Below, one piece after another: positions 32,829 through 63,575 of a stretch of DNA of 64,000 nucleotides. The stretch's first letter is position 1. Every line of letters begins with the position of its first letter. Source of the stretch: a virus; the IMG/VR virus record IMGVR_UViG_3300047287_000420, positions 20,286 to 84,285 of that record; one strand, given 5' to 3'. Made by a program: the position numbers and the translations under genes. The notes beneath the pieces are model-generated. The model made no database searches, was not told the DNA's origin, and saw only the letters and a list, made by a program, of their open reading frames with translations.

Positions 32829-33356
32829 TTAAATAATCAAGTTTGTACCGGTCTCGCCAGAAGGAGCTGGTTGCGCGGGAGGCCATTGGGGCCAGTAGCT
32901 GTAGTCTGTTGTAGATCCACCGGATGGAGTTGCGTAAGTTATGTAATTAGCAAGTTGGTCCGTGGTTTGAGTATTTCGAATTTCTAAAACTTTTGTTTCG
33001 CAGTAAACACGGATCTCCTGGCGCCAACTTTTAAGTCCACTCGGTACTGGAGTTCCGTTATCTGTTTCCCGGATAACAGTCCAATCGGACGGAACTAAAA
33101 TAGTATTAGCAGTATAACGAGTTTGATCAACCCAACCAGATACTAAAACTCCATGATCTTTGGGGATTAGAGTACCGCTTGCGGTATAACCCCAATAAAA
33201 CCGTTGATCGTAATACGGAGGATCTGGTACTTCAGTAATTCCAATCGCTTCGCGCTCCTCGACAGAGGAAAGACGCAGCCAGTTAGCTGGGTACTGAATA
33301 CCGTTATGAGTAAAAGCCTGATCAGGAGACAGAGGCTTACCGTCTAACAGAAACAT
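32829..33356 (-). CDS. tail fibre assembly/chaperone-like protein
   Basis: GIQYPANWLRL, YDQRFYWG, SDWTVIR; directly downstream of the fibre gene. Confidence 0.7.
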   Translation of the reverse strand: MFLLDGKPLSPDQAFTHNGIQYPANWLRLSSVEEREAIGITEVPDPPYYDQRFYWGYTASGTLIPKDHGVLVSGWVDQTRYTANTILVPSDWTVIRETDNGTPVPSGLKSWRQEIRVYCETKVLEIRNTQTTDQLANYITYATPSGGSTTDYSYWPQWPPAQPAPSGETGTNLII

Positions 33357-33439
33357 AACTCAGCCTTTTTTGTAATTATAGCCTACAACAATAAGTTGAC
33401 TGGTGCTAACCTCTGCCCACGCTGTAATCGTGTTAACTA

Positions 33440-35761
33440 CTAGCGGGCGCGGGCGTATTGGAAGGGGTTTTCTGCGAAGGCAGCGTATAAATACGTATTG
33501 GACGCCCCATTGACCAAAATATTACTGGATCTGATCTTAAATCCATTCGAAAGAATATCAGTGCCATACGCTGCGTTGTCATCTTCGCCCAGATTTAAGT
33601 TGGGGAACAACGCACGAGAAGCAACATTGAAAGAAGAGCGTTGCGTATCCAAAACTAGCCAGTTGTTTGTGTTACTGGCGGTGTAGTTTTTGATCATTAT
33701 CCATCTTGGCCTGAATCCTGTATAAACAAACGCGCCATCGGTGGTGCCAGTGCCAGTGTAACTGCCAAATGCGCTGTACCCAGCTACTGGGGCAAAGCAG
33801 TAGGCGACAAAAGTTCCGCCCGAGCCATTCACGTCTCCTTCAGAACCAAGGGTAAAAACTGTTGAACTCGGTGCTGTATCGTTAAACTGGCCCGCAGACC
33901 TAAAAGCTGCAGTAGCTGTAAAGAAAATTCCATTAAGCCACGTTAGGCTGGTGTGTCCTATGTACCAGTTTGTTGATGTGCTTCTCCGTTTGATAATGAT
34001 CATGCCATTGCTGAGGCCGACTAAGCCGCCGTGCCCCACAGTTGCTCCAGCGGAACCTGTCCCCGTATAAGTAACAATCGAAAAGCCTGCACTAGTATTA
34101 GCCCTCACTTGCGAGCTGATCGTGCCGCTAGTGTTGGTGACTGTTGATGAGCCGGCGTCCCAGCACCATCCTGCAAAGGTGCCGTTGTTTACATTGTAAG
34201 ATGAGTTACCTCCTAATGAAAATCCATCACTCGTAAAGGCGGTCAATCCGTTGACCTCGGTAGTCTCTAGATCAAGTTTGTTGGGTCTGAGTTCTTTTGT
34301 GGCACCGCGAACTACATCAGTCATTAAGTGGTCGTAGGTGCTGCTGCGCGATTTAATCCAAACTAGATCCGGCGAGAATCCCAGTCCAGAAATCGTCCTC
34401 GCTGCACCGGTGCCGGTGTAGAGCGTCACATCCATCACCGTGTTACCTTTGGCAATCGTCGGCGTTGGCAGGTTGGTGTCGCACAGAGCCTTGAAGCCGC
34501 TGGGGGCGGTGTAGGCGAAGGGGCGTTGGCCGAAGTTGACCCAAGCCGAGCTGCCGCCAGAACTCAGCGCGGGGAAGTAATCATTAGCTGGAATGCCAGA
34601 GAAGGTATAAACAGACGCACCGTTTTTGTATATGGTTGCTGTACCAGAGTCCGCGTTAAAAGCAACGCCAACAACATCGCCAGCAGCGTATGTAACGGTA
34701 GAGCCCGACGCAGTAATACCCGCGCTAGAACGACGCCCTCCTGTGGTGTCTAAGCCAAAATAGGCAGTGCCGCCTGATCCGATGTAGTCTTTACCCCAAT
34801 CGCTTGTAACAAAGCCAGTGGTTATCCCGTAAGAGATAAATGAGTCTATTGACGCTTCAAAATACCATTTGCCTGTCCGTACTCCGAACGTGGCAAAAGT
34901 TCCGTAGTTGGTACCGGCACTTGCTAGCGATAAGTTGAGATTGCCATTGCTAAGGTTTGCGTTCGAGTCTCTGTTTAGTGGATTAAGCGTGCAGTAGTTC
35001 CCCCTCACCTCCCCACCAGCGCCTGAATCACCGCCATAAGAAGTTGGGCTATCTACCAGGGAATCGTTGCCTACACCAGCGGTGACGCTGAGGTTATTGG
35101 GCGTCCAGTTATTGCCGTTACCACTGGTGTCTTTACCTAGCGTGGTGGCGGTGTTGCTGCTGTTATCCGCAAACTTGAGCTGGAAGCCGTTGTTGCCGTA
35201 GCTGCCGTTGTATGCCTTGGGCACCCACTGGCCGGTGGTGGCGTTGGTTTCAGCGAAGCTCGACGGGGTTAGGGCTTGGCCATCGATGAAGTGGATGTCA
35301 GCAAGATAGCCATTGAAGAACTGAGCAGAATTGCCGCCAATGCGATGCACGGCCGCCGAATTGATTGAAGTATTTGTAAAAGTACCACTAGCGACGCTTA
35401 CATTGTTGACGTAAATTGTATGCAATGTGCCGCTTTGCGTAAAAACAATATGATACCAAGCGCTAAAATCGCGAAAAACAGCATCTGTAAGCAACTGCTG
35501 AGTCCCTGAAACAGTCATGCTCAGGAACTCGCTATTGAAGCGCCAGCAGTTAGAAGAATCGACGCCAAATATGTGCTGTGCTCCAGAAGCAGATGTTCGC
35601 TTGCACCAGAATGAAAAGGTGTAAGTGCCTTGGGATGTCGGGGTGCTGAACGTGCGACTTAAGCTAGTCGAATCCGCCGAGTTAAACCGCAACGACCGGC
35701 TGATCTGATACCCTGTATCTGCCGCAGAACCTAAAAGAAGCTCAGAACCAATAATACTCAT
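33440..35761 (-). CDS. tail fibre / receptor-binding protein with LamG and SPRY-like domains
   Basis: SRSLRFNS, WYHIV, GKWYFE SPRY-like segment, YTGTG repeats, PDLVWIKSR, YAAFAENPF terminus. Confidence 0.85.
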   Translation of the reverse strand: MSIIGSELLLGSAADTGYQISRSLRFNSADSTSLSRTFSTPTSQGTYTFSFWCKRTSASGAQHIFGVDSSNCWRFNSEFLSMTVSGTQQLLTDAVFRDFSAWYHIVFTQSGTLHTIYVNNVSVASGTFTNTSINSAAVHRIGGNSAQFFNGYLADIHFIDGQALTPSSFAETNATTGQWVPKAYNGSYGNNGFQLKFADNSSNTATTLGKDTSGNGNNWTPNNLSVTAGVGNDSLVDSPTSYGGDSGAGGEVRGNYCTLNPLNRDSNANLSNGNLNLSLASAGTNYGTFATFGVRTGKWYFEASIDSFISYGITTGFVTSDWGKDYIGSGGTAYFGLDTTGGRRSSAGITASGSTVTYAAGDVVGVAFNADSGTATIYKNGASVYTFSGIPANDYFPALSSGGSSAWVNFGQRPFAYTAPSGFKALCDTNLPTPTIAKGNTVMDVTLYTGTGAARTISGLGFSPDLVWIKSRSSTYDHLMTDVVRGATKELRPNKLDLETTEVNGLTAFTSDGFSLGGNSSYNVNNGTFAGWCWDAGSSTVTNTSGTISSQVRANTSAGFSIVTYTGTGSAGATVGHGGLVGLSNGMIIIKRRSTSTNWYIGHTSLTWLNGIFFTATAAFRSAGQFNDTAPSSTVFTLGSEGDVNGSGGTFVAYCFAPVAGYSAFGSYTGTGTTDGAFVYTGFRPRWIMIKNYTASNTNNWLVLDTQRSSFNVASRALFPNLNLGEDDNAAYGTDILSNGFKIRSSNILVNGASNTYLYAAFAENPFQYARAR

Positions 35762-36855
35762 GATAAGTTACTAATAAAGGCAGCAGCAATATTAGACGAG
35801 GTGCGAGTTGCGTATGCAATTACGTCAACACCAGAAACAGTGGTGGTTAAAGTTGGGGGTGTTCCGTCTTTAAAGTCCCACTCAGATGCGTAGCTGGCTG
35901 TGCGGCTACCAACGGAATCTTGTTGAATATAGATTACACCAGACTGACCCTCTTTTAAATCAGAGGGAGTATTTAAAGTCGAAGTTCCTCCAAGAATCAT
36001 CGAAAAGTTATTGGCTGCCGAGAAATCAAGGGTTACCGTCCCACTAACGAGACCCAGACCACTAACCACGCCGCGCTGGGCTCGCTGGAAAAGCTGTACT
36101 TTTTCTAATGTTGCTTCGGTTTGCCAATTGATCGGATGGTTTGTATAAACCTCTACCCCAGATGTAACAGTGTTATATCGAAGGATGCCTAAATTTCCAG
36201 CAGGTCGTTGACTATTGTCTCCCTGAGGTATGTCAACCCCTCTAGATGATGTAAAACTGGCGACACCGCTAGCGTCGACTTTAAAGACTTGAACACCGCC
36301 AGCTGTAAGTGCTAGTTCATCAGTAGCACTAAGATATAGACCTGTATTAGTGTCGCCCACGCCGATGCCTGGCGACGCGGCAGAACCAGCAACAAATACA
36401 ATCTGTCCAGTTGCCGTATCTCCGCTTCGAATTAAACGAGTATCGGCCGAAGATAAAGCTGCATTACCGGAAGATAAAGCAGTCGAAGCAAGCGATAAAG
36501 CTGAATTACCACTTGCAAGTGCGGTTTGTGCAGTTGTCTGAGCAGACGCCGCATTAGTAAGAGCTGCGTTCCCCGAAGCCAACGCCGCCGTACCGACAGT
36601 TAAAGCAGCATTACCCGATGCCTGAGCTCTCCCGTCTATACCAAGTTGGGCAGAATCTCCAGTTTGAACCCAAATTAAACCGCTGGGATTAACAGCTAAC
36701 TCAACATCTAAACGAATATTTGTACTTACATCACCGCCGCCGGCTAAACCGCTTCCTGCAGTTACAACACCAGCCGAGACTCCAATAACGGAATCACCAT
36801 CAGGTAACTCAGAAGTTAAACCACTGACTAAAACTAGCGGCCGACGCTGAGCCAT
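35758..36855 (-). CDS. tail fibre stalk with heptad (A/S)SGN(A/S)AL repeats
   Basis: Four repeats spaced 14/21/14 aa; C-terminal domain shared with 39949..41466. Confidence 0.75.
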   Translation of the reverse strand: MAQRRPLVLVSGLTSELPDGDSVIGVSAGVVTAGSGLAGGGDVSTNIRLDVELAVNPSGLIWVQTGDSAQLGIDGRAQASGNAALTVGTAALASGNAALTNAASAQTTAQTALASGNSALSLASTALSSGNAALSSADTRLIRSGDTATGQIVFVAGSAASPGIGVGDTNTGLYLSATDELALTAGGVQVFKVDASGVASFTSSRGVDIPQGDNSQRPAGNLGILRYNTVTSGVEVYTNHPINWQTEATLEKVQLFQRAQRGVVSGLGLVSGTVTLDFSAANNFSMILGGTSTLNTPSDLKEGQSGVIYIQQDSVGSRTASYASEWDFKDGTPPTLTTTVSGVDVIAYATRTSSNIAAAFISNLS

Positions 36856-36883
36856 GATTTAAAACCTCTTTAGTAAGTATAAC

Positions 36884-37387
36884 TCAGGGTACGAGAATGA
36901 CGGGCGCTGATATTTCAATTTGAAGTTCAGTCGCACTTACAGCTGTACCTAGAATTACAAGTGCACCATACCCACTTGCTGCAACAACTGTACCAGAGCT
37001 AGTGGCGTAACGAGTTAACTTACCTTTGTACTTCGAAAGATAATAAGTATCGCCAGGTACTAAAGAAGATTCGCCAATAATATTTGCTGACGACACCGTA
37101 GCAGTATCATCAAGAATTATACCGACAGTTGCGTTCTGCGAGGCAGAAGTAGCAGTAAGTCCCACTGCATTATATTCAGCGGCAGAAGCACCAGAAGCAG
37201 CAGTCGCGGGTACAGCCCACGTGCCGCTCACAAAAACAACGTCACCCTGCGCCAGATCTTGCGCAGCCAACAAGTTCTGTGTGCTACTTAAAGTGGTCGA
37301 AACACTAGACCCATTAAGCAACCAAACTTCAGTACCGTTCGGGGTATACGAGGTGTAGCGCCGATTAAATAACGATCTGTCCGTCAT
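36884..37387 (-). CDS. virion decoration/fibre-base protein
   Basis: AQGDVVFV, LVPGDTYYLS, LGTAVS; paralog of 37437..37826. Confidence 0.65.
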   Translation of the reverse strand: MTDRSLFNRRYTSYTPNGTEVWLLNGSSVSTTLSSTQNLLAAQDLAQGDVVFVSGTWAVPATAASGASAAEYNAVGLTATSASQNATVGIILDDTATVSSANIIGESSLVPGDTYYLSKYKGKLTRYATSSGTVVAASGYGALVILGTAVSATELQIEISAPVILVP

Positions 37388-37436
37388 GCGCCGACACGAA
37401 CTAATACTGCTCTAACAATATTAGACGATTAAATTA

Positions 37437-37826
37437 CTACAGACCGGAGGCGCTGACAAAAAGAGGATTACTTACTTCAACTTCAAGCCCCGAGCTGCTA
37501 ACAGCGCGGCCGACGCGTGTTAAGTAAGCACCGACAAGCGAGCTACCAGCTAAAGAAGTAATCCAGCTGGGATACTGAGTGATCGAACCGGACGTTAAAG
37601 AGAGATATTGGTACTCACCAGGAGTAAACCCGCTAAATGTTGTAGAAACACTATCGGGGTTTACTCGAATAAGGGAGCCGACAGAGCCTGAATCAAGAGC
37701 GATGCCGGCCACAGTGGCCTGAGGTGCAGTTAAAGCACTTGCTTTATAAACCAAACCATTAGAGCTGACGTAGACAGCGTTATTAGCAGAGATTGTTTCT
37801 CCAGCTACAAAAGAAAGAAGCGCCAC
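37437..37826 (-). CDS. virion decoration/fibre-base protein (paralog)
   Basis: AGETISANNAVYV, FTPGEYQYLS, VGRAVS. Confidence 0.65.
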   Translation of the reverse strand: MALLSFVAGETISANNAVYVSSNGLVYKASALTAPQATVAGIALDSGSVGSLIRVNPDSVSTTFSGFTPGEYQYLSLTSGSITQYPSWITSLAGSSLVGAYLTRVGRAVSSSGLEVEVSNPLFVSASGL

Positions 37827-37852
37827 TACGCACCTTAACAGTTAGTGTAATT

Positions 37853-37978
37853 TTACTTCCCTTGGCCTCTGTAGCGTTTCTTCCCCCGTCGTTCTGGACG
37901 GGAGTTAATTCCGTGTCCAATCGATGTTGTCTTAGGCTTGGACTCAATTTTGTTAAGTACGCCTTTTGGTTTAGCCAT
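37853..37978 (-). CDS. small basic peptide (41 aa, not in track)
   Basis: MAKPKG...KKRYRGQGK*. Confidence 0.55.
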   Translation of the reverse strand: MAKPKGVLNKIESKPKTTSIGHGINSRPERRGKKRYRGQGK

Positions 37979-38025
37979 AAAAAAGAATTTGATCAGGCAC
38001 GACTATAGGAGATAAAACCCTCAAG

Positions 38026-38826
38026 TCAAGAAACGTTGTTCATTGTCACAATAACAGAAGGAATACCAGGAATTGAAGGCGATACAGAACCACTAGCAGC
38101 CACTAACTTTACATTAGTATCAGAAGAGTACCAGTATATTTGGGCGTATTCATTTGTGTTCATGCTTAAGAAAAAGTTCCACGCGGCAACTTGGCGCTCA
38201 GAAGAACCCTCTACAACAACTGTTGTGTTACTCCAAGGCACATCAGTTCCATTCTTGCGTAACCAAATATCAACAGTTGCTTTATTAGCACTAGATTTTT
38301 CTAATTGCGTAGAGAACTGTATGTCATATACCCCTGAGTTGGCGACACGGAGCATCGAGCCAGAAACAACTGTGATTCCACGCGAATCGGCGATGTTGTT
38401 ATACGTAAAAGCGTTGCCACTCACAGAGGCATTCGTCTGAGTTGTGGTGTCAAAAGCATTAAGTAGATAGGTTTGATAAACAGCGCCGCTAGGACCAGTG
38501 GCTCCTGTCGAACCTATAACTCCGGTGGGACCTGTAACCCCTAATGGGCCGGTAGGGCCGATTGGACCGGTCGCACCAACAAAACCAGAAGCAACAATGT
38601 TTGACGCTATACCGCTGACAGCAACAGTAAAACCTGGAAGTTTTTCAAGAGAATTCTGAATTCCGCTAAGTGAGATTTGTTTGGGTTGTGCAAGTGCTTG
38701 AACTTCTTCAAGATCAAGCACAAGGAATACATCATCAGTTGTTACTTCACGAGTCTCATTAAGATCTACGAGCGACTGAGACAGACGATTAAAGTCCAGA
38801 GCTTTATTAAGATTCTTCCTAACCAT
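38026..38826 (-). CDS. short collagen-repeat protein with BclA/C1q-like C-terminal domain
   Basis: About 10 G-X-Y triplets then a beta-rich head ([19 protein letters not shown]). Confidence 0.8.
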
Positions 38827-38833
38827 TTTTCGG

Positions 38834-39919
38834 TTAACTATTACTTCTAAGTGTATACCAACCCTGTTCGTGAAGATTAGTTAAATCAGTAAACACACGG
38901 TTGTACTTATCGCCGCAGGCTTCAAGACTGTACTTTTCTCTAGCAGTCTCGGAAATAACCTTGCGATCTAGCGAGTCTGCTTTATCAACAGCATCAAGCC
39001 AATCTTGAAGAGTCCGGCACCTAAATCCTGTAACACCATCAATAACCGTTTCAGTAAAAGCCCCGTAATCAACCGAGATTAAAGGAGTACCGCAAAGCAT
39101 AGCTTCGACTCCACTGCCCCCAAACGGCTCCGTGAAGACAGTTGGCATTAAAGCAGCCCGAGCGTTCTTTAAAAACTCAGATCGTTTCTTACCGCTTATA
39201 GGGCCACCATAATGAATATTCGGATGAGTCCAAGGTGTCGGATCGCCTTGTCCGTGAAGGATTATCGGCCACGGGGATCTCTGAGCGATTTCGTAAATGG
39301 TGTCCAAGCCTTTTAAGGAAGTTATACGACCTAGAAAAGCTAAATAACTACCCGGTTCATAAGATGCTTCCCAGTCATCTACATCAAAATAGTTTGGAAT
39401 AACCCACTCATAATTCTTTCCTCCTCGGTTTTCCTTACCTTGATGGACGTGCATCCAAGCGTAAGATTCATAGATATGAAAAGCATCAGACATCGTTGTT
39501 GGGTACCCGATGCCAGTTTCTACATGTTGATGATTAGGGAAAATCTCTAACAAACGACTATGGGCGTGACCAAAGGGATGGCAAATAATATCCTTTGGTT
39601 TTAAACGACTCTGTAATCGAGGTATTAGCTTACTTTCAAACAACTGATGGCCTTCACTACCAACCACGGCGACATCGCCGTAAAACTCTGATTTTCGACG
39701 GGAACCGTAAAGAGATTCAAACTCAGACTCATCTAAAATTTGAACATGCTCACAGGCTTCAGATTCACTACCGTAATTACTATATTCGATGACATCATAT
39801 CCTTGCGCTTTAAGCATTTTAGAAAAGCGCAAGACTTTTCCAGTAAAAGCACAATGTGAAAACTCTTGAGTAACTTTAGTGTGAAATAAACCTATTAAAT
39901 GAAGTGTAGGTTTGTTCAA
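38834..39919 (-). CDS. GT-B glycosyltransferase (GT4-like)
   Basis: FLGRITSLKG and EPFGGSGVEAMLCGTPLIS (E-x7-E), GVTGF. Confidence 0.9.
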   Translation of the reverse strand: MNKPTLHLIGLFHTKVTQEFSHCAFTGKVLRFSKMLKAQGYDVIEYSNYGSESEACEHVQILDESEFESLYGSRRKSEFYGDVAVVGSEGHQLFESKLIPRLQSRLKPKDIICHPFGHAHSRLLEIFPNHQHVETGIGYPTTMSDAFHIYESYAWMHVHQGKENRGGKNYEWVIPNYFDVDDWEASYEPGSYLAFLGRITSLKGLDTIYEIAQRSPWPIILHGQGDPTPWTHPNIHYGGPISGKKRSEFLKNARAALMPTVFTEPFGGSGVEAMLCGTPLISVDYGAFTETVIDGVTGFRCRTLQDWLDAVDKADSLDRKVISETAREKYSLEACGDKYNRVFTDLTNLHEQGWYTLRSNS

Positions 39920-39948
39920 CGGTAGGACTAAGGCACTATGTTGAGATC

Positions 39949-41466
39949 TTACTGCATGTCATTCAACATTCGGCAAGCAAGCCTTGTCGATGACTGAACG
40001 TAGTAACAAAGAACATCAACTTTTCCGACGCCGACAGACAGAGTTGGTGCGGTTCCTCCGGGGAAATCGTAATAAGAAGCGTAAGCAAGCGTGCCACCAG
40101 TCGAGCCCTGGGTAATAACAATCACCCCAGCTTGACCTTCTACAACGTTTGTCGGATTTCCTAAAGTTCTATTGCCGTTGATAGTGAGAGTAAAATTATT
40201 CCGAGTATTTAAATCTACTGAAACCGTTGCAGCGTCAGTAAGTGCTGTTGGCGTAATTCTATTAGCGCCTGTAAAACTCTGTGTGTTAGCAAGAATAGCT
40301 GCACCGGAAGGCTGAGGTCCTGTTGGGCCTGTTGCGCCTTGTGTACCCGTTACGCCTTGGGGTCCAGTAGCGCCGGTCGTACCTACTCCCGTAGCGCCAG
40401 TGACTCCCACGGCGCCTTGAACGCCGGTAGCTCCTGTTACACCAACAACACCAGTAGCGCCAGTTACGCCAACAACACCTGTTGCTCCAGTAACCCCCAC
40501 AGCGCCTTGAGGACCAGTGGCACCTGTTACACCGACAACACCTTGGACACCTGTTGCTCCGGTAACTCCCACGGCGCCTTGAGGACCAGTGGCACCTGTT
40601 TCACCTACGGCTCCTGTGGCACCAGATACACCAACAATTCCCTGAGGACCGGTTGGTCCCGTAATGCCTTGCGGGCCAGTAGCTCCTGTTTCCCCGACAG
40701 CACCTTGAACACCGGTAGCTCCCGTTACACCGACAACGCCGGTGGCCCCGCTAATCCCAACAACGCCGGTCGCGCCTGTGTCCCCGGTTGGTCCTTGAGC
40801 GCCAGTGGCACCAGTTACTCCAATTGGGCCGGTTTCTCCAATAGGTCCAGTAGCTCCAGTAACGCCTACAACACCAGTTGCTCCACTAACACCAACAACA
40901 CCAGTAGCTCCCGTGACACCAACTGGGCCGGTAACGCCAGTAGACCCAACCGGACCCGTAGCTCCAGTGGCCCCTCCAGGATCACCTTGAGGTCCCGTAG
41001 CTCCGGTAGTACCTGCAGGCCCTGTGGCTCCTGTTATGCCACGGGGGCCTGTGGCTCCAATGTTTCCTTGCGGTCCTGTAGCTCCTGAGATACCAATAGG
41101 ACCCGTCGCTCCGGTGGGTCCCTCTACACCTGTCGGGCCGGTCGCACCGCCGGGGCTACCCTGAGGACCGGTTGCGCCGGTTGTACCTACTCCAGTTGCT
41201 CCGGTAGCGCCAACAGAACCAGAGGCACCTGTAGCACCAGTCGCGCCGGCGGCGCCTGTCGCACCGGAGGGGCCGCCAGAAGGACCAGTAGGTCCCTGAG
41301 GACCTGTAGCACCGGTTGCCCCAGACCCTGCAATTGTTACAACAGAGCCAGAAAGATTTTTAGTCTGTAAACCACCTGTTGAGGTGTTGATAACTATCTG
41401 ACCTACTTCTATTTCGCTAGCGTCTACACCAGAGGGACTTGTGTTGAAATAAACTTTATTTGCCAT
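39949..41466 (-). CDS. long collagen-like fibre protein (G-X-T rich)
   Basis: Roughly 330 aa of G-X-Y repeats (GAT/GVT/GPT/GPQ) between N- and C-terminal globular domains. Confidence 0.9.
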
Positions 41467-55665: not shown

Positions 55666-55756
55666 AAATCTGGATAAATACGGTGTGCTTTATTAACTCT
55701 GACAGCGGAATGAACTGAATACTGTAAAAACTTAATTAAGAACAGGAAATAAAGAC

Positions 55757-55782
55757 AAAAAAAACCCCTTCCGAAGAAGGGG
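55757..55782 (-). terminator. Rho-independent terminator after the capsid operon
   Basis: On the - strand: CCCCTTC-TTCG-GAAGGGG followed by T8. Confidence 0.9.
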
Positions 55783-55807
55783 CCCCTGGTTTCGCGATCT
55801 GACTGTA

Positions 55808-56686
55808 TCAGGTCGGGGAAGTCGAGGTGTAAATCTGAGATTCGACAACACCTGCAGGCTGCAGAGCCAGATCAGAACGCTCGGGCGGCTGATCAGGAAC
55901 AATCCAGCACACTTCGCAGATGGCAAGAGCTTTGTTCTTGCCGGACAGCTTGCCAGCACCAGCACGGGGATCGTAGATACCCGAACCTTGAGCCAGACCA
56001 GAAGCGGCAACGCCGCCCAGGTTGGTGGTGGTGAACAGCTTCCACTGAGTATCAGCAGTCAGAGCAGACAGGCTGCTCGAGTTGATGATGTTGGTGGAGG
56101 CCACACTGCCGTTGGCGATGCGGCTGTCGGAACCAGTAACGGAAGTACCGAACTGGCCGGACACAACAGTGGTGGTGTTGCGGAGACCTTGACCCACAGC
56201 GGGGATCAGGGTCAGCTGAGGTGCGGCAGCGCCGCCGGCAACGCCGGAGCTCACCACATCGCCACCGTCCACACGCAGAGAAGTGCGGTACACGAAAGCA
56301 CCAGAAGGCACGGTGATGCCATCGGTGATGTCGGCCCGGACATCCTTGTGGAAATCGGGGGAAGGGATGATGATGTTGGCGTTCAGGAAGGGCTGGTTAG
56401 CCCCGTTCTGACCGGAACCATAAGGCTGGGTGTAGTAATCCAGCTGGTTATTGGTACCGAGAGCCTGATAGCTCAGGTCAACGTAACCGATGGCTTGCTG
56501 AGCAATCCAACCGGGACGGAACACCACGCCCACAGGGCCACCAACGGGTTGGTTGGTGTAGCTCGTTTGAACGCCATTGGCGTTCTCGAACTGCATGGTC
56601 TTTTCTTCGTGCCAGTAACGAAGAACGTTGGTGTAGTTGCCGGGATAAATCTTGGCAACCGAGATCTGGTTAGGGTTGATCGTCAT
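55808..56686 (-). CDS. minor capsid/decoration protein
   Basis: Directly after MCP with GGAGG RBS; same strong codon bias. Confidence 0.75.
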   Translation of the reverse strand: MTINPNQISVAKIYPGNYTNVLRYWHEEKTMQFENANGVQTSYTNQPVGGPVGVVFRPGWIAQQAIGYVDLSYQALGTNNQLDYYTQPYGSGQNGANQPFLNANIIIPSPDFHKDVRADITDGITVPSGAFVYRTSLRVDGGDVVSSGVAGGAAAPQLTLIPAVGQGLRNTTTVVSGQFGTSVTGSDSRIANGSVASTNIINSSSLSALTADTQWKLFTTTNLGGVAASGLAQGSGIYDPRAGAGKLSGKNKALAICEVCWIVPDQPPERSDLALQPAGVVESQIYTSTSPT

Positions 56687-56700
56687 TGTTAGTTACCTCC

Positions 56701-57816
56701 TCAAGCGTCGAAAGAGTAACCAACGGTGACGAAGTCAGCGTTCAGAAGTTCGAAACCTGCGTACAGGCTCCAAATCATCATGATGAAGCGGCTGAAGTCG
56801 TCGTTGTTGTTGAGGAGCACCTGGGCGTTGTTGCCACCGATGCCAACACCAACGGCCTGCGGACCAAAGAAGATACCAACGGCTGCGTTGTAAGCCTTGG
56901 CAACCGATGCGATGGTCGCGTTCTGGGTTTGAGTAGGCATGTTGGTGCTTTCGAAGAAGCGCACGCCTTCAAACACAAAGCCCGTGGGCATGATCGGCTC
57001 GCCAGCCACGAAGGTGGCTTGGCCGAAGCCTTGACCCATGTACAGGGCAGCGTTGGGCTGCATCCCGGACATGAGGGGGTTGATTTGACCGTTGCCAGGA
57101 TAACGAGCAACCTCGCGGAAGTCGCTGTTCTGACGAAGGTGCATCAGGAAGGTCGGATCGCAAACGCAGCGATAGAAACCATCCTGGAAGGTAGGAGTGT
57201 TCCGCTTACGCAGGCTCTTCACCACGCGAAGCAGGTCATCCTTAACGTCGAACTTAGCTTGCTCGGCGTTGGTATAGGTCAGAGCACCAGTGGCAAGGTC
57301 ACCAGGGAAGTAGTAACCGCCTTGGGTGTCAGAAGACTGACCCTTAGAAACAGCCTTCAGGAGTTCGTTGATGAACACCCGGTCGCGCCAACGACGATAG
57401 TCGTCGAGCAGCGTCAGGCTACCAATGGATTGGTGGAAGGTGGTGAGATTGCCGGTATCAAGAAGCAGACGCTGAGCAGTGATCAGCGTTTCACGTGCAA
57501 TCTTGAAAGTGCTGGGCTGAGTGGGATCACTCGGGTCAGCAGGACCGGTGTACTCGCGAAGCGTCACGAGCACCTTATCCTTCACGATATTGCGGCTGTT
57601 AGCAGTACCGATGGTCTGCTCAGCAGTACGCTCGCGAGATTCTTTGGAGCCGGGGTTACCGAAGAAGCGGTAACGGTCAAGCTGCACAGTCTGGCCGGGT
57701 TGCTTCGAAAAATCGTGAACAACCACAGGCTCCGCAGCCATCTCAACGATGTATGCGGGGTGAGGACGGTACAGTTCAGCACCAAGAATCTTCGGGAAGT
57801 CATTATCGATGAACAT
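56701..57816 (-). CDS. major capsid protein (HK97-fold inferred)
   Basis: 371 aa, high-expression codon bias, position after portal and scaffold, KQPGQTVQ and FEGVRFFES motifs. Confidence 0.85.
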   Translation of the reverse strand: MFIDNDFPKILGAELYRPHPAYIVEMAAEPVVVHDFSKQPGQTVQLDRYRFFGNPGSKESRERTAEQTIGTANSRNIVKDKVLVTLREYTGPADPSDPTQPSTFKIARETLITAQRLLLDTGNLTTFHQSIGSLTLLDDYRRWRDRVFINELLKAVSKGQSSDTQGGYYFPGDLATGALTYTNAEQAKFDVKDDLLRVVKSLRKRNTPTFQDGFYRCVCDPTFLMHLRQNSDFREVARYPGNGQINPLMSGMQPNAALYMGQGFGQATFVAGEPIMPTGFVFEGVRFFESTNMPTQTQNATIASVAKAYNAAVGIFFGPQAVGVGIGGNNAQVLLNNNDDFSRFIMMIWSLYAGFELLNADFVTVGYSFDA

Positions 57817-57900
57817 CGATAATATCCAGAAGAAACTACAAAGTTAATCTTAAAACCCTAGGAACGAGATAAGTAAAAACTTTGTCGCGTTCCTAGCGGT

Positions 57901-58704
57901 TTAGATTTTAGTGCCGGGGCTGAATGTGCGCACCATATTACGCACACCTTCACCAAGCACACCATATACAGATCCGTAATTCGGAGCGTAACGCAACGAT
58001 TTACCTCTGTAACTATTACGAGCCGGCGAACCCATCTGGCCAGGGACGCCCGTATACCTTGTTTCGGTAAGGGACTGGCAGTAGACGGGATAGTGATAAA
58101 CCCAGGCAGCACGAGACCCGGAGGTGTCGTTCGTGGGGTTTGTCAGAGTAGGTGACTGATTTGTGGGATGGGTAACCCCACCACCGGTGATGCCACCGCC
58201 ATCAATCGTGTTGTCGTTTGAGCTAGGTGTCTGGAACGGGCTATAAAGCTGGTTGTCCGGTATCTGTTCGCCGTACCAAGTGTGCGTGCCAAAGTTCCTG
58301 AGACCTGGCCGTGGCCCGAAAGCAGTTTGAACAGTCGCGTTAGCAGTGCTGTATAGACCTTGTGCTCTGAAACCAACGTAAGTATCTAAAAGCCCAGAAG
58401 CGTGAGGAAGCGTATTTTCGTAGTTTGTCCAATAACCAGATACGGCAGGCGGAACGGCTCTCCACTCAGTAGTGAAGTAACCGCTCAAGTTCGGAGGACC
58501 TACAGGAATACGCCCAAAGTCGGCTCCCTGATCATCAACTCCGTACCAAGTCTGAGTGAAACCTAGAGGCGTAACATATCCACTAGATACAACCAGATAA
58601 GTATCGGTTAAATCAAGATTATCACCCGTACGTTGCGGACCAGATTGAATAGGGTGGTACAGATTTTTGTCGTACTTCCAATTCGTCTGCGGCGTATACA
58701 CCAT
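57901..58704 (-). CDS. putative virion protein
   Basis: Tyr/Gly/Thr/Pro-rich ORF between scaffold and MCP; three SGY motifs. Confidence 0.65.
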   Translation of the reverse strand: MVYTPQTNWKYDKNLYHPIQSGPQRTGDNLDLTDTYLVVSSGYVTPLGFTQTWYGVDDQGADFGRIPVGPPNLSGYFTTEWRAVPPAVSGYWTNYENTLPHASGLLDTYVGFRAQGLYSTANATVQTAFGPRPGLRNFGTHTWYGEQIPDNQLYSPFQTPSSNDNTIDGGGITGGGVTHPTNQSPTLTNPTNDTSGSRAAWVYHYPVYCQSLTETRYTGVPGQMGSPARNSYRGKSLRYAPNYGSVYGVLGEGVRNMVRTFSPGTKI

Positions 58705-58768
58705 GATGACACTCCGAATAATTTAATTTTACTTGGTCTAAAATATTTAAGAGCTTTTAACAGGGCGA

Positions 58769-59107: not shown

Positions 59108-59269
59108 TAACTATTGATTCATCAAAAATTTCAGACTTTTCAGCGGCAGGTGCGGATTCTTGCTCGACCGGCGTGGAAACTTCTTCTTTCTTTTGCTCGA
59201 CAGGAGTTTTCCGGCGGCGATCTGTAAGCGTATGCACGGCAGTAAACCTTTTGTTTAAAGAATAGCAAG

Positions 59270-59295
59270 AAAAAAGCCCTCATTTCTGAGGGCTT
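59270..59295 (-). terminator. terminator after the scaffold gene
   Basis: AAGCCCTCA-TTTC-TGAGGGCTT with an adjacent A-run. Confidence 0.8.
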
Positions 59296-59321
59296 ATCAA
59301 GACCTTGGCTTTCTCAGTCTA

Positions 59322-60245
59322 TCAAGCAGGATCCATGAAGAGGAGCTTGCTGCGAAGTGCTTCAGGACCCATTTGGCTCAGGTAACGCCAAGCGTTCTCA
59401 GGGCTGCGGTTCATGACTTCGCTGAACTGATTCCACTGTTGCTCAGGCTGTGTACCAGCAGTGGAACCGCCGGCACCTGCAGGAGGAGCGGGCATGTCAT
59501 AGCGGGGTTGATAAGCCTCAGCTTGCTGGTAACCGTAGGAGTTATCACCGTCGATATCCACGGGGACAACTTCAGTGAAATAACGATCAGTGTAGTTAGC
59601 CAGGTGATCAGGATCAGTCAGGATGGTTTGCATCGCATCGTGGCGAGCAGTAAGAACATCCAGCTGCTGAGCCTGCTCTACCAGGAGATCCTCAAGAGAA
59701 CAAGCGTACTGATTGAGGATGCCAGGAGCTTCGATACCGAAGTGACTAACGACCTCGGCGGTTACGGGGCTTACGCTCGTTTGCGGGGCCGTAGAAGTTT
59801 GCGAGGAAGTTTGGGTCGGAGAGGCGCTGGTAGGCCAGGTCTGCGCTGCCTGCTGTTCCTGGTAAGCCCAGGGTTGGGCCTGTAAATTCTGACTGCTCAG
59901 TTGAGTAGCCAGTTGCTGAGTTGCCTGGTAAGGCGACTGTTGAACCTGGCTGGGGGACTGAGAGTTCACCTGCGATAGCACCCGCTCCAGGGTACCCATC
60001 GCCGCTTCCCAGGGATTGCTGGGGGAGGATTGCGACGTTAACTGGTTGTACTGGCTGTTGATAGAAGGGTCCGTAGCCGGTGCCACCTGCGACGGCGGTT
60101 GGGCTGTAGGAACCGAAGCTACCGCCGGGGTAGAGGTTTGCGCCACCCACTGCGGGTAGGCGGTTGAGCCCTGGTCCGAAGTTACCGCCGGGGCTACCGC
60201 CGGGGAGACCGGGCTCGGGATCGAAGCTTGGATCTGCTGGCTCAT
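59322..60245 (-). CDS. putative capsid scaffolding protein
   Basis: Q/P/S-rich N-terminus, coiled-coil middle, helical C-terminus; located between portal and MCP. Confidence 0.7.
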   Translation of the reverse strand: MSQQIQASIPSPVSPAVAPAVTSDQGSTAYPQWVAQTSTPAVASVPTAQPPSQVAPATDPSINSQYNQLTSQSSPSNPWEAAMGTLERVLSQVNSQSPSQVQQSPYQATQQLATQLSSQNLQAQPWAYQEQQAAQTWPTSASPTQTSSQTSTAPQTSVSPVTAEVVSHFGIEAPGILNQYACSLEDLLVEQAQQLDVLTARHDAMQTILTDPDHLANYTDRYFTEVVPVDIDGDNSYGYQQAEAYQPRYDMPAPPAGAGGSTAGTQPEQQWNQFSEVMNRSPENAWRYLSQMGPEALRSKLLFMDPA

Positions 60246-61971
60246 AGCTACCCGAGTAAGTTAGTTCTTCCGCGAGGTGGTCGAATGTCCTGTAAAGGAG
60301 CGGAGTTATGTTCAGTCTAGGATCAGCCGCAAGTGGCTGATTAGGCGCAAGTGGATGCGGCGACTGCAACATCTGGCTTAATAATACCAGAAATTGTTGC
60401 ATTGCTGATTGTGTCTGTTGCACCATGCGGAAGGGGAAACCCTTCAACATTTCAGCTCGCTCAGAGTCAGTTTTCTCAGGAAAAAGGAATTTAAGAGCTT
60501 CGATGCTGTCCACACCAAGCTCTTGTAAGTTACGTACAACGATGGACTTCTGGTTTATATCGTAAGCGGTATCTTCATAGACATCGCCCTGATATCGGTA
60601 CGTAACAGTCCGATCCCCGTCTTCAGGAAGCCCGATAACTCCGGGCGGAACCTTATTTTCCTGGAGAGCTAACTGAATAGTCTGAGTAACTTTCGCCTCA
60701 AACTTAGCTAACGCGTTTTGATATTTCTCAATATTTTCTTCGGTTTGTTCCTTAGGCGGCTTGGGCTCTTTTAAGCCAGCAGCTGCAATAAAGGACTCAC
60801 GGAAAATAACTTCCTGGTGATAGATCATCATCTCTAAGAGACGATTGAATCCATACGTAAGGAAACTTTTGTTCTTCCGAAGAGCCGTGGCTTGAGCCCG
60901 ACCCATCAAGCCTTTAATTTCCGTGGCGGTAGCACCAGCAGAAATCGAAATTTCATCCACACCGCCTAAGGCTGTGCGGATTTCTTCGCGTAAAAGAAGG
61001 GCGTACCGGTTCATATCCCCGTTAACGGGGTCCGGCGTCATGTAACCGACTCGGTCAGACGGCTCAACGTTGGCAATAATGCGCGGAACACGCAAACCAC
61101 CGCCCATGCTCGAGCCAAAAGGCTCACTTACTCGAGTCGAGGGGCTGTCGACACCAGCAAAACCACTCTGACTGCTGATTGTGGGCCGGAAAGTGCTCTG
61201 AGCATCGCTAGCTTCGACCAGATCACTCCGTGGACGCGAACTAATCAGCGTTGGGTTGCCAAAAAACTCAATATTTTTGGCGATATTGCGCGTCAGCTCG
61301 TCATGTAAGCAAATTTGCTCCATAAAAGGGTCAAATTCGCCTTCACCTTCGGTACCACTGGCGTTCGGCTTGTTTAAAACCTCAACAGCGGGAATAAAAC
61401 CGAGCGTATTGGGTCTTTTTTTGGCTGGAGTAAGAACAGCACCGGGCTCTAGATCGAAACTCAGTTCGGTGTCGGTCTCAACCTCACTAATTTCATCCGC
61501 AGTAATAGTCAAGCGCACGTAGCGCTTGTTCTGTCCGTAAGAATTACTAGGTAAACCTAAGTTTGCATTCTTTACCTTATAGCTATAGACGATAATGACT
61601 TCTTCTACGTTACCGTTAACGTCATGATACACACGATATTGATTTTTATTAAAGAAATAAATCTGATATTTAAGCTTTGGATCTGGACGGAAGTAGAAAA
61701 GACCGCAACCGTCGATTAAAAAGTTGCGAATAATCGCAGGAAAACGAATATCTAACTTATTTAAAGCAATTATGTCTTCTAAAAATCGTGTACGACTTTT
61801 AAAAGTATCTTGATCACAATAAAAAGCCAGACCCTTCTTAATCATCAGAAGAGTCATTTGCTGAAGATGGCTTAAGACAACCATCGTCGAAGCTTGATTG
61901 CTTCGATCCTGAGTGCGCGAGGCCTCTAAGATTTCAGTAAATCTTTTTCGTGTTTCGGTCGAGCTGGCCAT
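59746..61971 (-). CDS. portal protein with overprinted C-terminal extension
   Basis: NTLGFIPAVEVLN, G.GEF, IEFFGNP and SAGATATEIK portal-type motifs. Confidence 0.8.
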   Translation of the reverse strand: MASSTETRKRFTEILEASRTQDRSNQASTMVVLSHLQQMTLLMIKKGLAFYCDQDTFKSRTRFLEDIIALNKLDIRFPAIIRNFLIDGCGLFYFRPDPKLKYQIYFFNKNQYRVYHDVNGNVEEVIIVYSYKVKNANLGLPSNSYGQNKRYVRLTITADEISEVETDTELSFDLEPGAVLTPAKKRPNTLGFIPAVEVLNKPNASGTEGEGEFDPFMEQICLHDELTRNIAKNIEFFGNPTLISSRPRSDLVEASDAQSTFRPTISSQSGFAGVDSPSTRVSEPFGSSMGGGLRVPRIIANVEPSDRVGYMTPDPVNGDMNRYALLLREEIRTALGGVDEISISAGATATEIKGLMGRAQATALRKNKSFLTYGFNRLLEMMIYHQEVIFRESFIAAAGLKEPKPPKEQTEENIEKYQNALAKFEAKVTQTIQLALQENKVPPGVIGLPEDGDRTVTYRYQGDVYEDTAYDINQKSIVVRNLQELGVDSIEALKFLFPEKTDSERAEMLKGFPFRMVQQTQSAMQQFLVLLSQMLQSPHPLAPNQPLAADPRLNITPLLYRTFDHLAEELTYSGSYEPADPSFDPEPGLPGGSPGGNFGPGLNRLPAVGGANLYPGGSFGSYSPTAVAGGTGYGPFYQQPVQPVNVAILPQQSLGSGDGYPGAGAIAGELSVPQPGSTVALPGNSATGYSTEQSEFTGPTLGLPGTAGSADLAYQRLSDPNFLANFYGPANERKPRNRRGR

Positions 61972-62151
61972 TTATACGCACGAATGAGGAGACCCAAAAA
62001 GGATCAGTTACGGAAAGTGCTTTCCTTAGCTTTACGAGCTTTAGCCACGGCTCGCTTACGCGTGGCAGAAGAACCAGAAATTTCTTGACCACTAGGAGCT
62101 TTTTTGGCCTCCCGGTCGGCTGCGAACTTCTTCAGAAGCTCCGCAGGCATA

Positions 62152-62967
62152 TTATTCGCCATCTGGGAGAAGGTACTTTTTGACTCTTTCCAGTTTAACC
62201 GCTTCCTCGGGTAAATCTCCGATGGAATAATAGGTAATCAAATGATCCTCACGACCCAACATATCTGTACTGCCTTCATTAGGTTCAAACTCATCGCACA
62301 TTTTCTGAACTTCTGGCTTATCCCAGATGTAATATTCAGCTATAGAGCGCAATTTTGTACGACGCTTATCTGAATCTCCCATCCAGCTCAGGTGCCAACC
62401 TGCGTCACGCGTACCAAAATACAAATTATCTTGGCTGGCACGCATAGAAGACAAAGTGCCTAGCTCTTTTAACTGCTTAACAGTACTCACAACGCCACAG
62501 CGCCAGTCAAATAACTCTCCCTCGGGAGACACAAGCTGTCGATCTGCGCGTCCATAGTGCATCGACATGCTCAGTCGCACTATTTTATCCGTGTTATTTC
62601 GTACAGTTTCCAGTAATTTTGGGAATCGCTTGGGGTTAGCTATCTCGTCGCAGTCAGAGCAAATAAAAACTGTGTCGTCAGGCATCATGTGAAGCCCGAC
62701 GCCTAAAGCATCTCGTTGACCTCGTTCGCGAATCCAAGGATCTGGAGCCTCCTCATACGACGGAAGCTCAACGTGAAGAACCTGAATCTTGTCCTCGTTA
62801 AGACCGAGTTCGCGGATGGTGTCTAAACACGTAAAAGGTTTTTCCTCGCCACGATGCGTTCGATTTGCATCGGTAATTAAAAAACCGTCAACATGATCCT
62901 CTAGTGTCTTGATGCGTAACTCAAGAATTTCCCGCTCGTTAAAGTACGGAAACGCGTCGATGAGCAC
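62152..62967 (-). CDS. glycosyltransferase family 17-like (GlcNAc-transferase III-like)
   Basis: IDAF.YFNE..ILELR, THRGEEKP, W.RE.GQRD, SDCDEI (DxD), GWHLSW. Confidence 0.88.
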   Translation of the reverse strand: MLIDAFPYFNEREILELRIKTLEDHVDGFLITDANRTHRGEEKPFTCLDTIRELGLNEDKIQVLHVELPSYEEAPDPWIRERGQRDALGVGLHMMPDDTVFICSDCDEIANPKRFPKLLETVRNNTDKIVRLSMSMHYGRADRQLVSPEGELFDWRCGVVSTVKQLKELGTLSSMRASQDNLYFGTRDAGWHLSWMGDSDKRRTKLRSIAEYYIWDKPEVQKMCDEFEPNEGSTDMLGREDHLITYYSIGDLPEEAVKLERVKKYLLPDGE

Positions 62968-62997
62968 TAGAGTCTAATGAGCTAGCAATATGGTAGC

Positions 62998-63291
62998 TCA
63001 ATCTCGTTCTTGCAGGTACTTTGCGACTTTGTGTTTAGCCCGCATTAACGAGCTGCCGTTATTTTGCTCCAGAATGCTCCCACCGTCAGGCTCCATTCCG
63101 GTGTACTGATCGTTGGGAGGAGCAGGTGCTTCCGGCGCGGGCGAGTAGTTGTAATCAGTCTCCTCATCATTCAAGATTTGAGCAAATGCGCTCGAGGAGG
63201 GTGCGTTTGCTTGCCGCTGTGCATCAGCAGCTTGCATGTTCATTTGGTATGCCTTAGCAAAACCAAAACCAGCTCTTGCGTAAGGATCCAT
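62998..63291 (-). CDS. hypothetical protein
   Basis: TAATG-coupled to the upstream gene. Confidence 0.65.
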   Translation of the reverse strand: MDPYARAGFGFAKAYQMNMQAADAQRQANAPSSSAFAQILNDEETDYNYSPAPEAPAPPNDQYTGMEPDGGSILEQNNGSSLMRAKHKVAKYLQERD

Positions 63292-63575
63292 TAGTAAAGA
63301 ACGAAAACGCCTTGAACACTACCGCTAATCATAGCAGTACAAGCAATAGGTATTAAAGTATTACCTTCTAAGTTAACCGCAGTAGACTGCTGTCCAGGAG
63401 CATCAGATAGTTCAACAGTCAAATAATCTTTAGAGTTTTGGGATTTGGCTTCGATAAAGATAGCCCGACAAGTGGCAAAGTTTTTCCGACCTAAAGCTGG
63501 TGCCCAACCAAATCCACTCGCATAAGGCAAAGCAGCAGACTGGCTGTATACAGATCCGAAAGCGCGGATATCCAT
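63291..63575 (-). CDS. putative small virion beta protein
   Basis: 94-aa beta-rich ORF ending VFVLY. Confidence 0.6.
   Translation of the reverse strand: MDIRAFGSVYSQSAALPYASGFGWAPALGRKNFATCRAIFIEAKSQNSKDYLTVELSDAPGQQSTAVNLEGNTLIPIACTAMISGSVQGVFVLY

Follow-up and report, generated by a model that had tools for sequence, protein, structure and literature searches.

A collagen-linked GT4-family glycosyltransferase gene and an apparently separate Ser-Gly excess in the fibre proteins of an S-EIV1-like phage

The window analysed here, a stretch of 64,000 nucleotides comprising bases 20286-84285 of an 84,285-bp single-contig virus record (IMG/VR record IMGVR_UViG_3300047287_000420), encodes a GT4-family glycosyltransferase (GT) beside a long collagen-like fibre gene, together with a group of fibre and head proteins that are rich in the dipeptide Ser-Gly (SG). 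In a first-pass annotation these features had been joined into one system, in which the phage would O-glycosylate its surface proteins at an SG sequon by means of two encoded enzymes, the GT4 and a GT17-like protein. The analysis reported here takes them apart: the GT4 would glycosylate its own collagen-like fibre, and the SG excess would be a separate, structural and lineage-wide trait. To this two-part reading we assign about an even chance of being correct. Glycosylation of virion proteins as such remains a reasonable proposal, because a conserved neighbourhood ties the GT4 gene to the collagen-like gene at 39949-41466, but SG as the sequon of these two enzymes is not supported.

Because the major capsid protein (MCP; 56701-57816, minus strand) shares 69.5% identity with that of Synechococcus phage S-EIV1, its sole match in the phage collection, because the portal shares 42.6% identity with the same phage, and because the MCP has more than 597 relatives in IMG/VR (the best 80 at 91-99% identity), the phage is placed by sequence in a very widespread S-EIV1-like lineage and is probably a cyanophage. 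Positions are those of the window unless the genome is named, and the open reading frames (ORFs) are crude longest-ORF calls. The phage's own genome is denoted G000, and its near-complete relatives (CheckV 97-100%) are G001, G002, G004 and G005. Two minus-strand regions are concerned, a fibre module, which runs from 42300 down to 32829, and a head module. Three adjacent genes of the fibre module carry the first part of the argument:

39949-41466, minus strand: long collagen-like fibre protein of 505 aa (PF01391, 1.9e-43, 146.5 bits, cut-off 27.2)
38834-39919, minus strand: GT4-family glycosyltransferase of 361 aa, with a TTG start in the longest ORF (PF00534, phrog_3408)
38026-38826, minus strand: short collagen-like fibre protein of 266 aa with 12 contiguous G-x-y triplets; 8 SG against 2.7 expected

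The GT4 gene thus lies between two collagen-like genes, as had been noticed in the first-pass annotation, the one at 39949-41466 being strong and the one at 38026-38826 weaker (24.8 bits against the Pfam Collagen profile PF01391, under the 27.2 cut-off). It starts 29 nt downstream of the strong one, whose product contains 107 G-x-y triplets with Thr at the Y position in 58 of them. Both GTs of that annotation score above the Pfam thresholds and can be taken as genuine members of their families. For the GT4, the match to Glycos_transf_1 (PF00534) reaches 48.9 bits (cut-off 26.4, E 7.2e-13) and that to PF13692 46.3 bits (cut-off 27), and the family phrog_3408, named 'glycosyltransferase', is matched over the full length (8.2e-64). 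The E-x7-E motif belongs to the C-terminal domain of retaining GT-B enzymes; in the GT4 it reads EPFGGSGVE at residues 264-272, with E264, P265, F266, G268, V271 and E272 invariant in 14 homologs.

By genome search and tblastn (E <=0.01, with G000 as positive control), the GT4 was absent from G001, G002, G004 and G005. The long collagen-like protein is missing from the same four genomes, save for its C-terminal 15-16%. A 409-aa ORF of G005, considered as a collagen-like gene without a GT4, was discarded, as it is G-x-G glycine-rich and not collagen. The orthologs of the 41470 and 38026 genes are immediate neighbours in G001 and G002, and in the window and in the related locus L006 the collagen-like gene and the GT4 (2.6 kb) sit between them. 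Judged by this gene order, the pair is an accessory cassette, inserted with a conserved fibre gene on either side.

The association extends well beyond this lineage. In IMG/VR, 25 loci with a GT4 relative (47-77% identity) were collected, several of them near-duplicates, so that about a dozen are independent. A homolog of the 39949 protein was found in 19 of the 25, and in 17 of the 18 loci having at least 3.5 kb of upstream sequence. The same collagen-GT4 neighbourhood occurs in phage S-CBWM1 (L023), and a similar one in the T4-like cyanomyophage ACG-2014f, whose GT4 relative shares 35% identity. There the order is a 929-aa collagen protein, two small genes, the GT with a 2-oxoglutarate-Fe(II) (2OG-Fe(II)) oxygenase directly after it (L115, 6995-8672), and a tail fibre; a hydroxylase and a GT beside a collagen protein recall the hydroxylation and glycosylation of collagen.

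For bacteria, the best 80 of 190 confirmed relatives were taken, representing 79 distinct loci on genome contigs, and a collagen run was counted when it comprised at least 8 triplets on the same strand at a locus with at least 600 bp upstream. Such a run, ending 405-1430 bp before the GT start and typically at 500-650 bp, was present in 31 of 49 loci outside Nocardia and in 2 of 22 Nocardia loci. One pair (L186) lies in chromosomal surroundings that are not those of a phage, another (L165) within the tail module of a prophage. Thr at the Y position is about as frequent in the bacterial partner proteins (54% of 1518 triplets) as in the viral ones (55% of 1840). A quick tree groups the window GT4 with viral sequences (16 rows, SH-aLRT 100). 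Next to this viral clade stand one made up mainly of Bacillota, with a collagen link in 29 of 36, and one made up mainly of Actinomycetota, with a link in 5 of 28; in the labels of this tree all 14 viral rows were marked as collagen-linked, including L012, L014 and L026, for which clear evidence is lacking. Across phages and bacteria, these neighbourhoods indicate a GT4 subfamily that habitually stands directly downstream of a Thr-rich (G-x-T) collagen-like gene. No description of this pairing in phages was found in the searched literature, whose coverage excluded most subscription journals.

Several loci speak against so general a linkage. No 39949 homolog was found at six of the viral loci, five of which (L012, L014, L017, L020 and L021) have at most 3 kb of upstream flank, the sixth being L026. 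L026 has collagen runs of 7-8 triplets only, and L014 has no run in its 2.4 kb of upstream flank. Under the counting rule above, 18 of the 49 loci outside Nocardia and 20 of the 22 within it have no upstream collagen run.

The linkage of the genes, which is observed, suggests an enzyme-substrate relation in which the collagen-like fibre is probably O-glycosylated by the GT4 while still in the cytoplasm, ahead of assembly. Analogy with SgtA and BclA3 of Clostridioides difficile, and with collagen-like glycoproteins of the BclA type in the exosporium, suggests Thr, and also Ser, at the Y position of the collagen triplets as the acceptor. In the SgtA study (PMC7157674), the enzyme is described as having a GT-A type domain, as being encoded beside and upstream of bclA3, and as adding N-acetylglucosamine (GlcNAc) to Thr of GPT repeats, with Ser accepted too. 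Both systems place a GT gene next to a G-x-T collagen-like gene. The phage enzyme, a Glycos_transf_1 (GT4) protein encoded downstream of its partner, differs from SgtA on both counts and would work like SgtA without being a member of its family. The substrates differ as well: BclA3 is found on the spore surface, whereas the putative phage substrate is a tail fibre.

In the searched papers, no virion glycosylation was reported for a cyanophage. Freeman and colleagues are said to have described, in 2023, mycobacteriophages that carry GTs in or near their structural genes and whose virion proteins are reportedly O-glycosylated in the cytoplasm; the GT families, the hosts and the target proteins are different from those considered here.

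A competing account holds that none of the GTs touches the virion. Their targets would be glycans of the host envelope (lipopolysaccharide, LPS, or its O-chain), phage DNA or small molecules, and the SG excess would again be structural; modified host glycans would serve superinfection exclusion or receptor masking. GTs near the fibre genes of aquatic phages, including cyanophages and pelagiphages, are read as modifiers of the host surface or of DNA in three publications (PMC12801897, PMC7029224, PMC10202952). The nearest solved relatives of the GT4 also weigh against fibre glycosylation, as their substrate is a small molecule, a pterin: they are UDP-glucose:tetrahydrobiopterin glucosyltransferases from cyanobacteria (E 4e-18 to 2e-10, with only the C-terminal, donor-binding half aligned). 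Likewise, the NCBIfam matches of the two GT-B enzymes, the GT4 and a B736L-like protein encoded outside the window, are weak, fall far short of the cut-off in every case and point to GTs acting on lipids or small molecules (MshA, BshA, LPS GlcNAc transferase). Such targets can hardly explain, without a joint function, why the GT4-collagen pair is kept across phage lineages, in a prophage and in non-phage bacteria of several phyla, nor why the two genes were gained or lost together within the lineage. Furthermore, Pfam scans of the genome brought up no gene for a flippase, a polymerase or the synthesis of sugar nucleotides. On balance, this account is considered somewhat unlikely, though it deserves to be taken seriously.

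The second part of the reading concerns the SG excess. The other proteins of the fibre module, followed by those of the head module, are as follows:

41470-42300, minus strand: first fibre-module protein, 276 aa; 10 SG against 4.0 expected
37437-37826, minus strand: small fibre-module protein, 129 aa, a paralog of 36884-37387; 5 SG against 2.4
36884-37387, minus strand: small fibre-module protein, 167 aa; 4 SG against 1.8
35758-36855, minus strand: short fibre, 365 aa, matching phrog_4757 and a tail-fibre phrog; 14 SG against 5.4
33440-35761, minus strand: large tail fibre, 773 aa, with Laminin_G_3, SPRY and DUF7483; 15 SG against 11.4 (not significant)
32829-33356, minus strand: last fibre-module protein, 175 aa, with 5 of its 12 Ser in SG
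62152-62967, minus strand: GT17-like glycosyltransferase, 271 aa (PF04724)
59746-61971, minus strand: portal protein (phrog_20475, 2.9e-168)
57901-58704, minus strand: 267-aa protein without assigned role, encoded between portal and MCP and carrying 'SGY[FWV]T' repeats; 6 SG against 2.35
56701-57816, minus strand: major capsid protein with 1 SG (phrog_1357, 2.2e-23)
55808-56686, minus strand: 292-aa protein without assigned role, encoded immediately downstream of the MCP; 7 SG against 2.9

All the SG and GS counts given earlier were reproduced exactly. SG and GS occur 14 and 3 times in 35758-36855, 10 and 5 in 41470-42300, 8 and 4 in 38026-38826, 6 and 3 in 57901-58704, and 5 and 1 in 32829-33356; SG alone occurs 5 times in 37437-37826, 4 in 36884-37387, 7 in 55808-56686, 2 in the primase and once in the MCP. 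When each protein was compared with 2000 composition-preserving shuffles, a test that the first-pass annotation had proposed, the excess was above chance, with p <0.05 in seven proteins: 0.0005 (32829), 0.001 (35758), 0.0025 (41470), 0.0035 (38026), 0.016 (55808), 0.016 (57901) and 0.047 (39949), values that are uncorrected across about 100 tests. The excess was not individually significant in 33440 (p 0.14), 36884 (0.10) and 37437 (0.06). Pooling the nine named non-collagen proteins gave 74 SG against 33.9 expected (z 7.5), the most over-represented of the 400 dipeptides, with GS at 36 against 34.2 and NG, DG, TG, PG and AG at expectation.

To remove the selection bias of the earlier reader, proteins were also pooled by genome region, blind to SG. 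The eight proteins of the fibre module hold 72 SG against 35.3 expected (2.04x, z 7.2) with GS at 0.99x; 14 other tail genes give 26 against 21.2 (1.23x), four head-module proteins 18 against 11.4 (1.58x) and the remaining 110 ORFs of the genome 72 against 75.1 (0.96x). The Ser-Gly excess in the fibre-module proteins is real. It lies at the protein level, because the Ser codons within SG are a mixture of TCN and AGY; a DNA-level motif was rejected on these grounds, the commonest hexamer, TCTGGT, accounting for only 16 of 85. Shared ancestry was rejected too, because merely three paralog links exist among 14 structural proteins, and a generic beta-turn preference for x-Gly fails as the sole cause since NG, DG, PG and TG are not enriched. 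The only low-p non-structural protein is the family A DNA polymerase (14618-16639, plus strand), with 6 SG against 1.8 expected (p 0.0065), which is compatible with chance among about 100 tests.

A milder excess is common in phages. In a pool of 24 virion proteins of T7, T4, lambda, Syn5 and P-SSP7, SG stood at 1.28x and GS at 1.08x, and 5 of the 24 gave p <0.05. The structural protein gp54 of Syn5 (39335-41203) has 14 SG against 5.6 expected with 3 GS, T7 gp12 has 10 against 5.0 and Lambda J 12 against 6.4. A further 118 distant fibre proteins, which have only the 'WFDT' repeat in common with the 41470 protein (p41470), gave 1.27x for SG and 1.21x for GS, and 21 close relatives of p41470 gave 2.53x and 1.20x. 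In T7 the 24 ORFs of the early region upstream of gene 8 reach 1.60x (z 3.2), against 0.93x for its virion genes. A slight SG excess is thus widespread, at a baseline of 1.27-1.28x accompanied by nearly the same value for GS. In the fibre module studied here SG reaches about 2x and GS stays at 1.0, so that a general property of phage fibres was rejected as a sufficient cause; the twofold excess with flat GS is a trait of the S-EIV1-like lineage.

That SG is the sequon of the GT4 or of the GT17-like enzyme, as the first-pass annotation had proposed, is not supported by a comparison with relatives that lack these genes. Fibre-region limits in the relatives were set from ortholog positions, and all ORFs of at least 100 aa inside them were counted. 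The four relatives without the GT4 show an equal or higher excess: 70 SG against 40.0 (1.75x) in G001, 100 against 49.8 (2.01x) in G002, 79 against 33.5 (2.36x) in G004 and 24 against 13.7 (1.75x) in G005. For GT4-bearing loci elsewhere, fibre ORFs up to 8 kb upstream of the GT4 were pooled in two groups and stood at baseline, with 1.28x in six S-EIV1-like loci and 1.32x in seven loci of other lineages (eight entered, L005 giving no ORF); L006, a close kin of the window, is the only GT4 locus with a high value (2.05x). The GT17-like gene is absent, by tblastn, from S-EIV1, from G006, another genome of the wider S-EIV1-like group, and from Syn5 and T7, yet S-EIV1 has five strongly SG-enriched proteins (for example 11 against 3.4 and 14 against 6.6), and G006 encodes a 590-aa repeat protein (36220-37992, plus strand; loci L214-L217) with 30 SG against 8.3 expected. 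Because GT-less relatives are SG-rich and GT4-bearing loci are at baseline, SG enrichment is dissociated from the GT4 in both directions and the GT17-like gene is not needed for it; as far as these genomes indicate, the excess is independent of the GT4.

Because of its position, conservation and substitution pattern, SG would instead be a structural motif, a small residue followed by Gly at the C-termini of helices, in beta-hairpin turns and in tandem fibre repeats. Its typical context is [A/V/P/S]-S-G-[T/L/V/I]. In the 35758 family the dipeptide belongs to a 14-residue 'ALASGNAAL' tandem unit, with up to 12 copies in 207 aa in relatives, and in the 41470 family it lies inside 'SGIYxT' strand repeats. 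The G006 protein consists nearly entirely of 9-10-residue 'TGxTGxFT' repeats, and at one position of the repeat the dipeptide is SG in some copies and AG or TG in others.

S39-G40 and S73-G74 are nearly invariant among 21 p41470 homologs (25-82% identity), four SG sites of the 55808 protein (p55808) are almost invariant in 55 sequences, and several sites are fixed in head-module orthologs down to 44% identity. The orthologs of the 32829 protein in G001 and G002 have an SG excess too. In the fibre-module orthologs, the Ser of SG is kept in 102 of 154 cells (66%), against 207 of 517 (40%) for other Ser. When replaced, it gives way to N, D or G in 27 of 52 cells and to Thr in 10 of 52, and for other Ser the figures are 72 and 71 of 310; the N/D/G contrast (27/52 against 72/310) has a Fisher p of 7e-5, computed on cells that are not independent events.

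Mapping the sites on predicted structures, as had been suggested, succeeded in part. In an AF2 model of p41470 with a mean predicted local distance difference test (pLDDT) score of 67.4, five SG could be placed, at helix C-termini (39/40 and 73/74) and at hairpin turns (95/96, 174/175 and 223/224). Another immediately precedes a strand, in a stretch where pLDDT is 45, and four are in loops, three of these in low-confidence blocks. No structural reading was drawn from the AF2 model of the 57901 protein (p57901; pLDDT 31). A Foldseek search of the p41470 model against the PDB returned no usable match (best E 0.023), and at the sequence level neither 35758 nor the 41470 profile matched a solved relative in the PDB. 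Altogether, a turn or capping motif accounts for the pattern of SG more readily than an acceptor site does.

The 41470 protein is built of an N-terminal two-helix domain, the 'SGIYxT' beta repeats and 'LWFDTxxGxLxVY..SGW' repeats. Residues 1-75 of the family carry the widely conserved motifs CPxHG and CPxGY and form two helices, each ending in SG. Because this domain is present on many differently built fibre proteins, it may be an attachment module of the phage group, and its sequence suggests that it possibly binds metal.

Several points count against the structural interpretation of SG and against the reading as a whole. It leaves unexplained why SG alone is enriched and not NG or DG, why the level is about 2x here against 1.27x in fibre proteins generally, and why the excess recurs in seven or more unrelated protein families of a single phage. 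In p55808 orthologs the commonest replacement of Ser is Ala, and not N, D or G. The conservation and replacement counts rest on ortholog cells and not on independent events; the p41470 model is of moderate confidence, with four of its ten SG in blocks of pLDDT <50. Finally, tblastn detects the B736L-like GT in all eight of the wider S-EIV1-like genomes (G000-G002, G004-G006 and S-EIV1), every one of which has SG-enriched proteins. The statement that no single GT is common to all SG-rich genomes had to be abandoned, since this search finds the gene in G005 as well.

This last point opens a rival explanation, in which the Ser of SG is an O-glycosylation acceptor of a core GT, the B736L-like enzyme, with the GH130-like, GT2 and GT17-like proteins perhaps extending the glycan; the outcome would be a glycan coat on the fibres and head accessory proteins. 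Apart from the GT17-like gene, its components lie outside the window:

genome 3703-4875: B736L-like GT-B enzyme, with a 4-nt overlap with the GH130-like gene and adjoining the terminase
genome 4872-5960: GH130-like gene, with a Pfam match below the cut-off
genome 9517-10290: GT2

The B736L-like protein, the only GT found in all eight genomes and the only one of these GTs that S-EIV1 has, shares 38% identity with its S-EIV1 counterpart and 42% with that of G006. Its best solved relative is B736L of chlorovirus NY-2A (PDB 3OY2), aligned over the full length (E 2e-19). This chlorovirus glycosylates its own capsid protein; the phage gene lies outside the coordinates of the present finding. According to PMC4691112, B736L binds GDP-mannose in vitro, its role in capsid glycan synthesis is only proposed and its function is unproven, which weakens the argument by homology.

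The GT17-like gene is a core head-module gene of the lineage, present in G001-G005; the GT17-like, GT2 and GH130-like genes are core in G000-G005. The place of the GT17-like gene next to the portal, pointed out in the first-pass annotation, was confirmed: it lies about 180 nt upstream, and the head module continues, all on the minus strand, with the portal, p57901, the MCP and p55808. A GT17-like gene stands upstream of the portal in 38 of 41 related loci with a complete portal, the other three having at most 243 nt upstream, which makes 38 of the 38 loci with room and favours the core-GT explanation. The match to PF04724 scores 52.8 bits (cut-off 26, E 4.3e-14) over profile positions 76-255 of 348, and a D-x-D motif (DCD) occurs at residue 105. 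Its 211 homologs are all metagenomic, with PF04724 precomputed for 119 of the 120 listed, and no solved relative was found. The same Pfam match defines the GT17 family of beta-1,4-mannosyl-glycoprotein GlcNAc transferases (GnT-III), and homologs carry that name; as an N-glycan substrate of the animal kind is not expected in a bacterium, the name says little about the acceptor.

The specificity of the SG excess, with GS, TG, NG and DG at or near expectation, would suit a sequon, as would its confinement to fibre and head accessory proteins, its spread over seven or more unrelated families, its level far over that of fibre proteins in general, and the higher conservation of Ser in SG than of other Ser. 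The co-occurrence, however, may be plain inheritance, since no member of the lineage lacks the B736L-like GT. The Ser of SG is replaced by the non-acceptors N, D, G and A more often than by Thr, and SG and AG alternate within repeats. SG-rich virion proteins also occur in phages in which tblastn found no relatives of the five GTs, namely gp54 of Syn5 and gp12 of T7. Lambda J is SG-rich too, and the early-region ORFs of T7 are themselves at 1.6x. A two-residue sequon would, moreover, hit many non-virion proteins, and the rest of the genome shows no avoidance of SG (0.96x). We regard acceptance of glycans at SG by a core GT as distinctly unlikely.

The first-pass annotation had drawn on a comparison with the Ser-Gly sequon of animal proteoglycans. 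The animal sequon requires acidic neighbours around Ser-Gly, and the common point with xylosylation by GT14 enzymes is the dipeptide only. In the phage, the flanks of SG are hydrophobic or small and acid-poor, the share of Asp and Glu being 4.6% up to four positions away from SG and 6.9% overall, and no GT14-type domain was found in Pfam scans of 84 proteins. The animal xylosyltransferase is, moreover, an enzyme of the secretory pathway, through which phage virion proteins never pass.

The two proposals could be combined into a two-tier virion glycosylation in S-EIV1-like phages, with a core SG O-glycosylation by the B736L-like GT and the GT17-like, GT2 and GH130-like proteins, its Ser-Gly sequon selected into unrelated fibre and head accessory proteins, and above it an exchangeable cassette of collagen-like fibre and GT4. 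This combination is improbable. A further reading, in which SG itself is not selected and its excess merely follows from composition, repeats within the proteins or common descent, is largely refuted and very improbable: although part of the 35758 count comes from ASGNAAL repeats, part of the 39949 count from triplets with Ser at Y, and the highly related ortholog sets make pooled ortholog ratios pseudo-replicated, the shuffles preserve composition, GS is at expectation, repeat-free proteins such as 32829 are the most significant, SG sites are fixed in orthologs down to 44% identity, and the few paralog links and mixed codons noted above speak against it as well.

The preferred two-part reading has consequences for both of its halves. 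The association of a GT4 clade with Thr-rich collagen-like genes suggests that collagen-like fibres bearing glycans are a widespread type of adhesin, and the recurrence of the pairing across cyanophages of three morphotype groups, prophages and bacterial chromosomes would offer a concrete enzyme-substrate pair. With more than 597 MCP relatives in IMG/VR, any virion modification in this lineage would be ecologically common. The SG excess is a clean and reproducible signature of the fibre module in the lineage and is not fully explained; if structural, it marks fibre repeat folds that are undescribed, in keeping with the lack of solved relatives in the searches, and if a true sequon, it would represent a new kind of protein glycosylation in bacterial viruses.

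Some further features of the proteins and of the genome were recorded. The C-terminal domain of the 35758 protein is common to the 39949 protein. The 55808 protein has no family match in Pfam, phrog or ESM Atlas searches, and ESM Atlas searches with p55808 and p57901 gave unnamed viral clusters or sub-threshold leads only. An antisense ORF of 378 aa (56686-57822, plus strand) spans the entire MCP gene; the annotation of S-EIV1 has two hypothetical coding sequences on opposite strands at its MCP locus (60784-61545 minus, 61540-62010 plus), which looks like a mis-annotation of the MCP. A 307-aa ORF in another frame (59322-60245, minus strand) overlaps the last ~500 nt of the portal ORF and extends 420 nt beyond the portal stop, and its post-stop part looks like a small helical, scaffold-like protein, a putative gene between the portal and p57901.

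Two methyltransferases are encoded outside the window, at genome 11500-12213 and 14589-15173. Both contig ends (genome 1-60 and 84226-84285, the latter being window 63941-64000) consist of GGC/GGT-type repeats (CCACCGCC...), and no exact terminal overlap of 20-400 nt was found between them; the assembly probably broke inside a glycine-rich gene of a circularly permuted genome. Within the window, at 10595-13317 on the plus strand, a MoxR-type AAA ATPase (bpMoxR, 7.5e-57) is followed by a VWA-domain protein, and this pair is kept in four of four relatives.

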